Below, piece after piece: positions 28,301 through 39,693 of a stretch of 64,000 bases of DNA; the stretch's first letter is position 1, and every line of letters begins with the position of its first letter. A model generated the notes under the pieces. It was not told the DNA's origin and made no database searches. It saw only the letters and a program-made list of their open reading frames with translations. Position numbers and translations under genes: made by a program. This DNA comes from Eledone cirrhosa (lineage: Eukaryota). The stretch lies in the NCBI GenBank assembly GCA_964016885.1, contig OZ024740.1, positions 335,482,001 through 335,546,000 of the forward strand. The letters are read 5' to 3'.

Positions 28301-28936
28301 TTTATACTCAGGTTTATATATACACATATATATATGTGTGTTTGTGCGTGCACGTGTGGGTTTGCGCATGTGTGTGTGTGCCTACGTGTGGGTGTGGATG
28401 TGTAAGTCAATTGATTTTCACTCTCTTGTAGAGGCTGAATATATTCTTATAAGACAAGCTTACTGAATGGGAAGATTTGTCTTAATTTACTAATTATCCA
28501 TTTTAATTATGGTAATTGGTATTGTCTCTTTCTCATCGGCAACCGCAGTTTAAGCAATTATATTTTAAAACATTCCTCTGCTATTCTACCTTTTAGCTAT
28601 TTATCTATGTGCACACAAAAAACACACGTGCGCTCACATATATATATATCAAAGCAAGCGACACATTAGAATGAAGAACTGTATTAATTTAACGCTTGAA
28701 ATAATAGGAAAAGTGCCTTATCATTATGAACACTAGTCCTTCATCAGAAGATAGATTGAGAAATACAAGATGAAATAAAATGATAAAGAATGAGAAGAAG
28801 AAGGAAGGGAGGAAAAAGATGGAACGAAAAAAATTCATATACATACATATTCATACATATACACATGCACACTATGCATATATATATATATATATATATA
28901 TATATATATATATATATATATATATGCATATATATA

Positions 28937-29120
28937 TAACGAAGGAATTGTGGAAAGGAACCAGATGGACCATAACGCACCAAAGTACTCAATACTTAGG
29001 GTAGTAGAGTGGGTAATAGGAACAAGTATGACCCCGACGGCAGAGCGCAAGCCGTTTAGACGGCTATTTCTGGACGCAGAAATAGCCGTCGAAACGGCTT
29101 GAGCTCTGCCGTCGGGGTCA
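28937..29120. mobile_element. ~190-bp TA-flanked element ending in a ~95-bp near-perfect palindrome
   Basis: tatgaccccgacggcagag..ctggacgcag..ctctgccgtcggggtcata. A second copy lies at 43405-43590. Confidence 0.85.
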
Positions 29121-29193
29121 TATATATATATATATATATATATATATATTAAATTCAAATATTAATAAAATAGATGTTCTTGTGATCAATTAA

Positions 29194-29259
29194 ATTTTAT
29201 TATACATATTTCAGAGGTACTTGAATGAAGTGTAATAGTACGTCCTCATCAGATAAAAT
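29194..29259 (-). ncRNA. Type I hammerhead ribozyme
   Basis: attttat CTGATGA ggacgtact..agtacctct GAAA tatgt ATA ataaaat. Confidence 0.8.
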
Positions 29260-34598: not shown

Positions 34599-35965
34599 AT
34601 AATTGCCTTATGTTGTTTATTACATACCTATTAAGCTCTGTTACCTACATAGAGCACTCTTTCTTCCTGGACTTTCCGACGGAATTACTTCATTTACACA
34701 TATATTCACACGCATATATATATATATATATATATATATATATATATATATATACATATATATATATATATATATATATTGTAATATTATTCTATTTGGG
34801 GAGGTTCATATTGTTAGAATAGTGCCGGTAATATATAATAAAACACACGCACTGTTTGGGATGGGATGCTTTTCGGTTACACATATTTTGTATACCTATA
34901 ATTAAAATAGTTGCAATCAATGTTTAACATTGATTGGTCAATAGTCAATATATATATATATATATATATATATATATATATATATATATATATATATATA
35001 TATATATATATATGTATATATATATATATATATATATATATATACATACACACACGGGTGTGTATGATTGGGTATAGAAGATTATATTATTAAAAGGAAT
35101 TCCAACTTTGTCTGATTTACTCGTTTTATTTATAATCCTTTAAACTTATAATAATATTATAATGAAATAGTATGGTAGAATATTAAATGTTAAGTGTTAA
35201 TTGAACAAGTACTTTCCTAATTGAACTAGTACTTTCAATAAAACGAGTGAATCAGACAAAGTTGGAATTCCTTTTATTAATATATATATATATATAGTCT
35301 CTGAGAGTTCTTTCGTCACATACCTGTGACAACATCAGTTTGGAAGCCTCGACAATGCAAATGGGTAAATCTCCGGGTAACAAGATCCGGTGGTGGAGAG
35401 AGAGATGTAAGTGGGTGTACGTTGAGATGCGTGGTGTGTATAAGATGTGTAAATGTGTAGAAGAAAGAAGGGAAGAGTATAAAGGATAAAATTAAAATAA
35501 CAACACAAGAGAGAGTTACCTTGGGAGAGATTTAATAGTCCCTATATATTTCGGATTCACATCCATCAACTGGGGTTTTTTTCCGGGGTAAAGGTTGTCT
35601 GTCGGACAGGTGCGAAACGCGTCCTCCGCTGTTTGTTGTTTTGAATATCTGAGGTATTCGGCAGAGCGCGCGTGCGCGTGAAATGGGGTCGGTCGTGCAA
35701 AGGTCAGCTGCCGAATGAGGGAGTGGGGTGGCGCTACTGTCAGTCCATTCTCTGCCTGTTTGTTAAATGTTACTGTGTGTGTGTGTGTGTGCGTGTGTTG
35801 TTGTCTCGCTTGAGTGTGTGTGTGTGTGCGTGTCTTGTTGCCTTGTTCCTCTGTATTGGCAGTGTAGTATGTTCGTATGGTGGAATGCTACTGTGTGTGT
35901 GCGCGTGTGTGTAGTTGTTTCGTTTGTGTGTGCGTGTGTTGTATGTTGCTACATCGTTTGTTAAC

Positions 35966-36785
35966 TTAAACCAGCCATCTCATTTCGCTTCTCTCTAATC
36001 GGTTATTTATTTGCGGTTGCAGGCGTTTGATAAAAAGCGCTTCCTTGATACGTAACGTGCCGACGTTTCTTTCAGTCGCTAGAATTGTGACAATTGGCCT
36101 TCCGTCTTTGTTTCCGCATTTGTCTATGTGTTTCCGGAAAGACGAGGCCCTGGTTTTAGTGTGTTCCTTGATCCGGATGTGCAAAGGTCGGATTGTGCTA
36201 CCTATGTAGTATTGGTTGCACCTGTCACATTCTATCTTATACACGACGTATGTGTGTAGGCAACAGTTCGCATGGCGTATCGGGCAGTCTCTGAGGGATC
36301 ATGCGTCAGTAGATTTCCCGGGTTTCTTGGAGAGGCATCTTCGCAGGGAGGGGCCCGAGTGGGCCAGGTGGATGTCGAGGCCCTCCCTCCGTATAGCCTT
36401 GCGGATAGCGTTGGTGGTATTCTCGCCCAGGTGTGGCATTTTAAGGAAGCACTTGCCTTGGGTGCCTCTCTGTCTCTTGTGTCTGGTGTCTCCTATTCTG
36501 TCTGTGATCGAGGTAGGGTACCCGTTCGTCTCCAGCACCTCGAGGAATCGCTTGGTATGAGTGACACCACTCGCGGGATCGCTGCATCTGTTTTTGATTC
36601 GCGCGATCTCGTTCGTGGTGTATCCTCTTTTAGCACTGTTAGAGAGGGCGGACTTGTAGTCAACGAACAGGTCCCTGCAGGCTGCCTTTCGGTAGAAGTT
36701 GCAGTGGATCCTTCCCTGTTCCGCGATGTTGATTCGGAAGTCGAGGAGGGCAATTGACCCGTCTTCGTTGGGGTGTTCAACACTG
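35966..36785 (-). pseudogene. Inverted duplicate of the PLE-D thumb and GIY-YIG region
   Basis: ORFs 36299-36538 and 35966-36244 match the plus-strand copy and lack its frameshift. Confidence 0.92.
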
Positions 36786-38912
36786 TGGGAAACAACAACT
36801 TAACAACCGCCACCGCCGCATCCACCAATACCTCAACGATGCGACGCACCTGGTCACCGACCTAAGCGGCACTCTAACGAGCGACGAGCTAAAACTCCTA
36901 CACCTCGGACCCATGTTCATCGTCTCACAACGTCTCGACGACAGACTCAAACTCAACATCGAGGCCAACTTTTGTCGAACCGCTTACCAACTTAAATGGG
37001 TGACTGCCATCAACAGCGCCACAGAAAATAACAGCGCCCACGCAACCCACCCCAAGTTTCCCACTTACCACCCCGACAACCCACTCCACCCCCCACCCAC
37101 CAACCACGAACTCGACACTAAACTCATCAGGCTAAAACACTCCATCTCGGATATACTTCACAAACACACACACACACGCACAACACATAACCTCACCAAA
37201 TCTCAACTCACCACTCTCTCCAACCTAAAATCGAAGAACCTCATCTATCTCCCCTCCGACAAGGGAAAAGAATTCTGCGTCATCAGCAGAGAGGCCTACA
37301 ACACCCTGGCCCTCCAACACCTTGACGATGACAACCTCTACTCCAAGGTCACGGGAATCACTCCCGCGCAGATAGAAGAGCACATCAACGCCGCCTGGAC
37401 CAACATCTGCGACCGGCGGAAGCTCCCGAAGAAGCTGAGATACAACCTCCTCACGAGGAACAGCAGACTACTCGCCTCCTACCACCTCGTGAAAACACAC
37501 AAACAGGGACCCGACCTGAAGATCAGGCCCATCGTATCGAGCGTGGATGGACCACTCTACAAAATTTCATGGCTCCTAGCCAGAATACTCAAACCCATCT
37601 TAGACACCTTGCCGGGACACGTTAACAGCTCCGAGGAGGTGTTGAAGCACCTGCATCAAATGGATCCCGACACCTGAAGGAATAACAGATATGCCTTCAG
37701 CCTTGATGTAGTCGCTCTCTACACCTCGGTCCCGGCACTCCCGGCCGTCAATATACTGATGGAACGCGTCCAATCCACCGACCTACAATGCTTCGGGCTC
37801 ACCACCACTGACATCCACCAACTCCTATCCATCGTCGTCGACAACACCTACTTCGGATTCCTTGACCAAACATACCAACAAACCTCGGGATTGCCCATGG
37901 GATCAAGCCTATCAGGTGTGCTAGCGATCGCTTACATGGATAACCTCGAACGCAAGGCACTCAACGCCTGCCACCCCAACGCCGTAGCCTTTTTCTCAAG
38001 GTACGTGGACGATATCCTCATCCTCACATCTTCCCAAGACACGGCGAACAGAATCTATGAGACGTTCAACAACACGGACGAGAACATTGATTTCAGTGTT
38101 GAACACCCCAACGAAGACGGGTCACTTGCCCTCCTCGACTTCCGAATCAACATCACGGAACAGGGAAGGATCCACTGCAACTTCTACCGAAAGGCAGCTT
38201 GCAGGGACCTGTTCGTTGACTACAACTCCGCCCTCCCTAACAGTGCCAAAAGAGGATACATCACGAACGAGATCGCGCGAATCAAAAACAGATGCAGCGA
38301 TCCCGCGAGTGGTGTCACTCATACCAAGCGATTCCTCGAGGTGCTGGAGACGAACGGGTACCCTACCTCGATCACAGACAGAATAGGAGACACCAGACAC
38401 AAGAGACAGAGAGGCACCCAAGGCAAGTGTTTCCTTAAAATGCCACACCTGGGCGAGAATACCACCAACCTATCCGCAAGGCTATACGGAGGGAGGGTCT
38501 CGACATCCACCTGGCCCACTCGGGCCCCTCCCTGCGAAGATGCCTATCCAAGAAACCCGTGAAATCTACTGACGCATGATCCCTCAGAGACTGCCCGATA
38601 CGCCATGCGAACTGTTGCCTACACACATACGTCGTGTATAAGATAGAATGTGACAGGTGCAACCAATACTACATAGGTAGCACAATCCGACCTTTGCACA
38701 TCCGGATCAAGGAACACACTAAAACCAGGGCCTCGTCTTTCCGGAAACACATAGACAAATGCGGAATCAAAGACGGAAGGCCCATTGTCACAATTCTAGC
38801 GACTGAAAGAAACGTCGGCACGTTACGTATCAAGGAAGCGCTTTTTATCAAACGCCTGCAACCGCAAATATACAACCGATTAGAGAGAAGCGAAATGAGA
38901 TGGCTGGTTTAA
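36786..38912 (+). pseudogene. PLE-D RT plus GIY-YIG polyprotein, 5'-truncated, with two in-frame TGA and one frameshift (~38470); Nematis/Poseidon-like
   Basis: PSDKG, KTHK..IRPIVSS, SLDVVALYTSVP, GLPMGSSLSGVLA, RYVDD, LLDFRI, VYKIECDRCNQYYIGSTIRPLHIRIKEH, IKEALFI. Confidence 0.92.
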
Positions 38913-39693
38913 GTTAACAAACGATGTAGCAACACAGAACACACTCACACACAAACGAGACAACTACACACACACATACGCACACACACAGTAGCATTCC
39001 ACCATACGAACATACTACACTGCCAATACAGAGGAACAAGGCAACAACACACGCACACACACACACACTCAAGCGAGACAACAACACACGCACACACACA
39101 CACAGTAACATTTAACAAACAGGCAGAGAATGGACTGACAGCTAGCACCACCCCACTCCCTCATTCGGCAGCTGACCTCTGCCCGACCGACCCCATTTCA
39201 CGCGCACGCGCGCTCTGCCGAATACCTCAGATATTCAAAACAACAAACAGTGGAGGACGCGTTTCGCACCTGTCCGACAGACAACCTTTACCCCGGAAAA
39301 AAACCCCAGTTGATGGATGTGAATCCGAAATATATAGGGACTATTAAATCTCTCCCAATGTAACTCTCTCTTGTGTTGTTATTTTTATTATATCCTTTAT
39401 ACTCTTCCCTTCTTTCTTCTACACATTTACACATATTATACACACCACGCATCTCAACGTACACCCACTTACATCTCTCTCTCCACCACCGGATCTTGTT
39501 ACCCGGAGATTTACCCATTTCCATTGTCGAGGCTTCCAAACGACTTAAAGATATTTACATATATATATATATATATATATATATATATATATATATATAT
39601 ATATGTATGTATGTATATATACATATGTATATTATGAATGATTTTTCGAAGAGGAATGGAAGAGTACCACGTTTAAATAATGGTTTCTTATAT

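Follow-up and report, generated by a model that had tools for sequence, protein, structure and literature searches.

Hammerhead-ribozyme insertions in (TA)n of the Eledone cirrhosa genome: Penelope-like element tails and retrozymes likely copied in trans

Introduction

Which enzyme integrates animal retrozymes is an open question, on which a 64,000-nt stretch of the Eledone cirrhosa genome bears (assembly GCA_964016885.1, contig OZ024740.1, positions 335,482,001 to 335,546,000, forward strand; hereafter the window, with coordinates counted from its first nucleotide). Between 28.9 and 34.8 kb the window holds five short families, A to E, that carry hammerhead ribozyme (HHR) cores and lie in (TA)n as pairs of oppositely oriented arms. 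The initial annotation took all five for non-coding, mutually unrelated RNAs mobilized by Penelope-like elements (PLEs) in the same window. The results described here divide the families. A, C and E are tails of coding PLEs, and B and D are closed non-coding units that classify as non-long-terminal-repeat (non-LTR) retrozymes. We consider it likely that B and D were copied in trans by a Penelope-type protein with reverse transcriptase (RT) and GIY-YIG endonuclease (EN) domains.

Ribozymes and inverted arms

Ribozymes were located with a type I HHR descriptor tolerant of a long helix II and of unpaired bases at position 10.1-11.1. It identified nine HHRs in 28.9-34.8 kb, where 300 shuffles averaged 0.007, and 11 in the whole window, where 60 shuffles gave 0.1. 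A stricter first descriptor (helix II below 45 nt, 10.1-11.1 paired) matched only in A, E and the coding element PLE2, and a scan of the window against Rfam returned no hammerhead at E ≤ 5. The long helix II of the window HHRs, 13-62 nt, probably explains the latter miss. Helix I differs in sequence from family to family and is pairable in every one. By self-comparison each of the five intervals, and likewise each of three coding PLEs, has inverted arms, and in all five families the 3′ ends of the HHR strand point outward (tail-out). The ribozyme cores and the tail-out arms of the initial annotation are thus confirmed; an HHR in both arms holds for A, C and D, since B has one HHR and the plus-strand copy of E is degenerate.

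Copies of the window families were sought in the 3.0-Gb source genome. The first look gave 2,867 (A), 2,718 (B), 2,306 (C), 2,327 (D) and 1,279 (E) candidates, which are not copy numbers; per family the best 40 candidates were scored and 30 fetched. The 311 fetched loci and the window (1.3 Mb) contain 269 HHR-like sequences in 35 clusters, where shuffled sequence gives one match; their helix II measures 13-118 nt and helix III is mainly palindromic. In every family the 3′ ends are fixed at two places, a short and a long end 30-120 nt apart; the 5′ ends vary, and the copies are flanked by TA. The region consists of separate, nested insertions into (TA)n, and the nearness of the families reflects a shared target and not a helper relation.

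Families A, C and E

Family A (29148..30850, both orientations) consists of two 5′-truncated arms of a PLE 3′ untranslated region (UTR) of about 1.5 kb. Its left arm (-) has the short end and its right arm (+, 30637-30850) the long end, with HHRs at 29259-29194 (-) and 30641-30706 (+). Family C (31398..32139, both orientations) likewise comprises two truncated arms of a PLE 3′ UTR, the left (-) with the long end and the right (+) with the short end. Its start, earlier placed at 31476, is corrected to about 31398 because the long tail (31398-31475) had been omitted. The HHRs of C lie at 31616-31524 (-, with C3U) and 31999-32091 (+) and have a helix II of 62 nt. Family E (33533..34712) is formed by two truncated arms of a microsatellite-rich PLE 3′ UTR or pseudo-LTR, left (-) with the short and right (+) with the long end; the HHR at 33624-33565 (-) is accompanied by the degenerate plus-strand copy near 34547, which has a mismatch in helix III and fails the descriptor.

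As the initial annotation had stated, no coding homology was found inside the five window intervals by tblastn with eight window PLE peptides. Copies elsewhere extend further. In other copies A runs more than 1.5 kb further upstream, and in seven extended loci, picked from 30 as those reaching furthest 5′, homology to GIY-YIG (EN) was found upstream in 7/7 and to the RT core in 6/7; one of these loci has frames of 443 and 242 aa. For C, same-strand GIY-YIG (EN) coding lies upstream in 15/30 loci (found with the upstream part of C) and RT coding in 5/10 extended loci. E leads through its microsatellite-rich UTR into GIY-YIG and RT coding, and four fetched copies, two of them 99.6% identical, have open reading frames (ORFs) of 713-715 aa bracketed by E sequence that is 91% identical to window E. 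In a search with the E-family protein, 23 of the 128 scored matches have stop-free frames of at least 708 aa. Because longer copies reach RT and GIY-YIG coding, A, C and E are 5′-truncated 3′ UTR tails of coding PLEs whose longer copies are protein-coding.

The PLE proteins of E (RWK, DKT, CxCx5C) and A (RWR, DKT, CxCx5C) have motifs that would place both elements in the Hydra clade. In C the motifs CxCx5C and YRDD are present, and its N-terminal RWK/DKT region lies outside the copies fetched. All three combine an HHR near the 3′ end with insertion in (TA)n, and by eye the E protein resembles Hydra-1_Obim. Neptune/Nematis, considered as the clade of A, C and E, was given up for Hydra after motif comparison. 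The genome also contains what appears to be a Hydra family that was active recently and whose ORFs are open. The 3′ UTR of E also contains copies, about 100-110 nt long, of its own HHR-bearing 3′ end (L136, L150, L164, L165, L351-L354); the TA tracts at these copies differ among subfamilies, which have inherited them.

Families B, D and D′

Family B (30904..31275) is non-coding and retrozyme-like, with a full unit of about 438 nt seen elsewhere. Its left arm (-) has the long end and is too short to include an HHR; its right arm (+) has the short end and the only HHR (31091-31134, +). Family D (32171..33522) is a non-coding tandem unit of 523 nt. The left arm (-, 32171-33137) spans 1.85 units and has the short end, the right arm (+, 33132-33522) has the long end, and HHRs are found at 32304-32223 (-), 32829-32748 (-) and 33266-33347 (+). 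The head-to-tail periods are 523 nt (D) and 438 nt (B), and the longest stop-free frames 89 and 91 aa, respectively. The head-to-tail junction of B occurs in 19/29 loci, which had been selected by the spacer.

In both families the sequence past the long end re-enters the family's own unit. Of the single-orientation copies, 0/12 of D and 0/21 of B have PLE coding on their own strand in the 400 nt next to the 5′ end, and a sensitive search of the 311 loci aimed at a coding parent for either family returned only a non-coding sister, D′. The scored and fetched loci contain no autonomous parent similar to B or D. D′, first met in the flank of a fetched locus, has a unit of 541 nt that is closed too and 72% identical to D across its length (2,772 candidates); D and D′ show a compensatory pair difference in helix II. 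The type I descriptor matched 45 D and 25 B sequences, and each of the two families has more than 2,000 candidate loci. As in Hydra HHRs, the ribozymes of B and D have unpaired bases beside helix II and a palindromic or nearly palindromic helix III. By sequence criteria B, D and D′ are ORF-less non-LTR retrozymes.

D′ also forms an array of about 200 kb (G000:C28:8782639-8982194, L343-L349). Seven 10-kb stretches of about twenty were read, namely both ends and five inner ones, and all are filled with units that are 96-97% like a reference unit; the HHR core is intact in most of them, at 13-18 cores per 10 kb. One end of the array is an inverted arm with the short end and the other is a long end, both in (TA)n, so that the array has both ends of a single PLE-type insertion. 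It is located in the TA centre of an inverted repeat of about 90 bp that belongs to another element. Two D insertions with different flanks (L118 and L158) have an identical inversion junction, at unit positions 398/487. L158 is a nine-unit D array whose units differ at three columns only; its use as evidence for rolling-circle copying was dropped, since this divergence is far below the 1.4% of other insertions and points to later amplification.

Insertion ends

The tail between the short and the long end is about 96 nt in A, 30 nt in B, 77 nt in C, 123 nt in D and 42 nt in the coding element PLE3, and 70-80 nt in E. The inverted pairs comprise 84 tail-out and two tail-in cases. Both ends could be classed in 72 pairs, of which 67 are short+long, three long+long and two short+short (p = 3e-15 for the short+long excess against an expectation of 0.5). 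The rule holds family by family (A 13/15, B 17/18, C 12/12, D 16/16, E 9/11) and in 33/34 pairs for B and D combined. (TA)5 lies within 40 nt of 217/245 terminal ends, compared with 11.5% of random 40-mers of the loci; the TA and inversion bias expected by the initial annotation is present in the sampled copies. Both orientations are present in 17/28 D loci and in 15/29 spacer-chosen B loci, and a single orientation in 11/28 and 14/29.

Where the two arms of D meet, 11/23 junction rows overlap by at least 4 nt, compared with 14% in simulated blunt joins; after removal of one palindromic and one repeated junction the count is 9/21 (p = 0.0012). The simulated joins were passed through the same pipeline and replaced an exact-match null (2.4%), because raw BLAST overlaps overstate microhomology. 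Units of D diverge within a locus by 1.4% (tandem) and 1.5% (inverted), and between loci by 2.3%. In D the cut site of the ribozyme is followed after about 58 nt by the short end and after about 181 nt by the long end, and 24/45 D arms, in a sample biased to long arms, span at least two cut sites.

Coding elements and other features of the window

PLE1 (15657..20045, -) is a frameshifted Hydra-type element (RWK, DKT) that has an inverted arm and, upstream, part of a pseudo-LTR. It has a variant HHR at about 19590 (+), with a mirror copy, that shows a U4C core and a helix II of 94 nt. PLE2 (20702..23742, -) is a degenerate Hydra-type element (CxCx5C, GLYRDD) with an inverted arm, HHRs at 20867-20802 (-) and 23629-23694 (+), and a 3′ end related to A. 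The last 200 nt of A are 76-79% identical to PLE2, and to this extent A is not unrelated to its neighbours. The arms of PLE2 cover about 20.70-23.74 kb and not the 20.1-23.7 kb first given; the sequence at 20112-20700, between (TA)n and PLE2, is not assignable to PLE2 and contains an HHR half-core at 20670 (-). PLE3 (35297..39570) is a 5′-truncated RT and GIY-YIG element with DKG, two inverted arms, an in-frame stop and frameshifts. With DKG it is not Hydra and is probably Neptune-like. Its family is young and has short and long ends in TA. No HHR passing either descriptor was found in PLE3; the architecture ascribed to all three coding PLEs holds for the inverted arms but, in PLE3, not for the ribozyme. 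The left arm of PLE3 ends in an HHR-like fragment (35297-35338) that is absent from the other 24 loci and is not the family tail. By their motifs the coding elements appear to be mainly of the Hydra clade. All three window copies carry stops or frameshifts and therefore cannot be the helpers that the initial annotation saw in them.

Another Hydra-like GIY-YIG fragment lies at about 24967-25344 (-). A short interspersed element (SINE)-like repeat of about 185 nt is present in at least eight copies (12828, 15382, 15953, 19744, 44185, 57849, 60020 and 62623), one of which sits at an equal position in both PLE1 arms. An element of about 220 nt with a GC-rich hairpin of about 95 nt, (TA)n flanks and no HHR occurs at 28928-29149 and 43379-43610 and has kin in L177 and L195. 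Palindromic elements of about 200 nt were found at 35083-35284, with TA outside, and at 55691-55896, with arms 98% identical and TA in the centre. An intact-looking open frame of 1153 aa at 48401-51862 (+) encodes an APE endonuclease, an RT and a zf-RVT domain of the long interspersed element (LINE) type.

Alternative explanations

That all five families are non-coding and non-autonomous would fit the lack of coding homology in the window intervals and the short, 5′-truncated form of most copies. It is refuted for A, C and E, which reach GIY-YIG and RT coding at many independent loci, E even flanking its ORFs on both sides, and as a statement about all five it can practically be set aside; the closed tandem units of B and D are the part that stands. 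B and D could instead be pseudo-LTR pieces of unsampled coding PLEs, copied in cis with tandem pseudo-LTRs. Their end anatomy equals that of the coding families, Li et al. (2026, 10.64898/2026.07.22.740005) propose an origin of retrozymes in PLE termini, and each search scored 40 out of more than 2,000 candidates. The sequence past the long end nevertheless leads back into the unit and never into a 5′ UTR or ORF, whereas the tail of E does lead into its ORF; a B or D homologue stands beside coding sequence in 0 of 311 loci, and D′, 72% identical to D across its unit, is closed as well. This origin is improbable.

Each insertion resembles a terminal inverted repeat in TA, and the units might be taken for DNA transposons like miniature inverted-repeat transposable elements (MITEs) or for fold-back assembly artefacts. 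Arm lengths and junctions vary by copy, the fixed 3′ ends are unequal, the arms differ by 1.5-5%, and many copies have a single orientation, which leaves this explanation with hardly any probability. A MITE identity was rejected on the same grounds, as neither a constant length nor fixed terminal inverted repeats were present. Mobilization of B and D by another retroelement, or inversion after insertion, is somewhat less improbable than this but still unlikely. The LINE-type ORF in the window looks intact, and Cervera and de la Peña (2020, PMC7229834), in the parts of the paper covered, leave LINEs possible. Against this, a poly(A) or tandem-repeat tail is absent, a tail bounded by two start sites is described as unique to PLEs in the portions covered of Frangieh et al. 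(2024, PMC11167929), and inversion after insertion would not match a short end with a long end.

The favoured reading takes A, C and E for PLE tails and B and D for retrozymes that a Penelope-type protein likely copied in trans; several points weigh against it. The cut site of D is GUU, and monomer folding gives the full three-way junction for E only and not for B, C, D or D′; in the portions covered of Li et al. (2026), in vitro cleavage was absent in 8/9 retrozyme dimers. With the best 40 candidates scored per DNA search, B or D could have a rare parent with coding capacity that escaped. The pair counts leave out 12/84 pairs with an unclassed end, include the window's own copies, and still contain five long+long or short+short pairs. 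The first B query comprised the entire inverted unit and so favours the inverted layout, while the D query selects for full monomers and thereby raises the number of multi-unit arms. Of the D junction rows, 6/23 are gapped and 6/23 overlap by 0-1 nt. In B the divergence gap is small (5.7 and 5.2% within a locus, 6.8% between loci), and the difference within and between loci could come from gene conversion. The ends cannot name the helper clade, because the non-Hydra family of PLE3 shows the short+long pattern in TA too. A tail hairpin that bears on the helper of D was defined after the families had been seen, was not found by descriptor in B or PLE1, and lies near a detected HHR in only 32 of 113 strict matches.

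Relation to known systems

Animal retrozymes, including those of mussel, were defined by Cervera and de la Peña (2020), whose main text is silent on octopus and cephalopods; as mobilizers it names LINEs or PLEs, with PLEs a strong candidate. Li, Clavereau and Pollet (2026) tie retrozymes, mostly of vertebrates, to PLE termini; in the portions covered, the support is co-occurrence and terminal homology and the mechanism is left unresolved. B, D and D′ share with animal non-LTR retrozymes the ORF-less head-to-tail unit with one type I HHR each, the occurrence as monomers, dimers and long arrays, and the presence of PLEs in the genome. They differ in unit length (438-541 nt, compared with about 170-400 nt in the 2020 and 51-972 bp in the 2026 report) and in a helix II of up to 50 nt. 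For published retrozymes expression, circles and cleavage are reported; B, D and D′ are classed by sequence, and a look-up of sequencing runs containing D listed none of RNA, the three runs found being contigs of one sample. Insertion ends, target and inversion are not described in the portions covered of the published accounts.

For PLEs, Cervera et al. (2014, PMC4209133) described opposite-strand HHR pairs 100-700 bp apart, read as truncated PLEs, with low activity in vitro. Craig et al. (2021, PMC8557442) reported inverted truncated copies, tails that are often one-sided, a TA bias and non-autonomous Chlamys elements, and defined the Hydra motifs RW[KR], DKT and CxCx5C; their supplement lists Hydra-1_Obim of Octopus bimaculoides with an HHR and a (TA)n preference. 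[quoted passage not shown] Unlike them, the elements have 3′ UTRs of 1.5-2.6 kb, which takes them beyond the '<3 kb' norm; their tails measure 70-100 nt instead of 30-40 nt and their helix II 26-94 nt instead of about 10-25 nt (table of Craig et al.), and one protein has 44,832 first-look candidates. Non-autonomous Chlamys elements such as MRC1 (Craig et al., 2021) are comparable as non-coding PLE partners with head-to-tail insertions, but they are algal, mostly without HHRs, and similar at the 3′ end to autonomous families.

Truncated PLE tails, opposite-strand HHR pairs, TA targeting and one-sided tails are thus already published; A, C and E are ordinary truncated PLEs, and B and D are new families of a known kind. 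The novelty in cephalopods suggested in the initial annotation may stand for retrozymes, as no literature on cephalopod retrozymes or on retrozyme insertion ends was found in a search that took in few subscription papers and not Repbase, where these families might already be listed. It does not stand for Hydra PLEs with an HHR and (TA)n, given the octopus entry.

Possible mechanism and helper

In vitro, the PLE protein studied by Frangieh et al. (2024; PAc, Poseidon of Anolis) cuts and extends both strands of AT-rich DNA, two internal RNA start sites delimit the tail, and the template is mainly uncut RNA. These likenesses form the basis of the two-site priming proposed here. PAc belongs to a different clade, and the portions of that work covered assign no start site to a strand, report no strand difference and try no non-autonomous RNA. 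By analogy, a PLE protein would cut both strands of (TA)n and start cDNA synthesis from each cut end, one cDNA beginning at the upstream RNA start site and the other at the downstream site. If each cut strand primes at one of two start sites, the short+long rule is expected. The two truncated cDNAs would then join by short microhomology, and fill-in would give the tail-out inversion. Both start sites are located 3′ of the position where the ribozyme would cut. The RNA copied would accordingly be either an uncut multimer or a circle closed by religation, which are alike at the DNA level. Unequal crossing-over would later, and likely did, expand some tandem insertions into satellites.

A Hydra-clade protein is our best guess for the helper of D, and we lean towards it because of the HHR type and a shared bulged hairpin. 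The hairpin follows the short end by 4-8 nt in D, D′, A, C, E and PLE2, its stems being kept while its loops vary, and has a background of 0.7% per site. A wider scan gave 43 motif groups, and in 10 of them a member was located 20-320 nt downstream of an HHR, a zone that holds 5% of positions; three of these ten are C, D and E themselves. At L286:461-1962 the 5′ end of a long-ended B arm is fused, without TA, to a truncated PLE3-like coding arm of opposite orientation. This tail-out chimera could be a two-template insertion, but as a single case it is only a lead. A fuller scheme would have B, D and D′ as circular ribozyme RNAs, copied by a Penelope dimer through rolling-circle target-primed reverse transcription (TPRT) from two start sites, one per strand, with the hairpin recruiting the enzyme for D and single insertions seeding 200-kb satellites. 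We regard this scheme as tentative and rather doubtful as a whole. If TPRT on circular templates proved true, it would be the missing integration step of animal retrozymes, and recruitment by the hairpin would make it a portable cis-element for PLE-driven insertion.

At dozens of sampled loci B and D show the PLE tail signature. The short+long rule links two RT start sites known in vitro to genomic inverted insertions, and it ties the spread of retrozymes, earlier connected with PLEs by co-occurrence and terminal homology, to PLE TPRT. The two genomic ends give predictions at the nucleotide level, and further retrozyme families may sit among the 35 HHR clusters.

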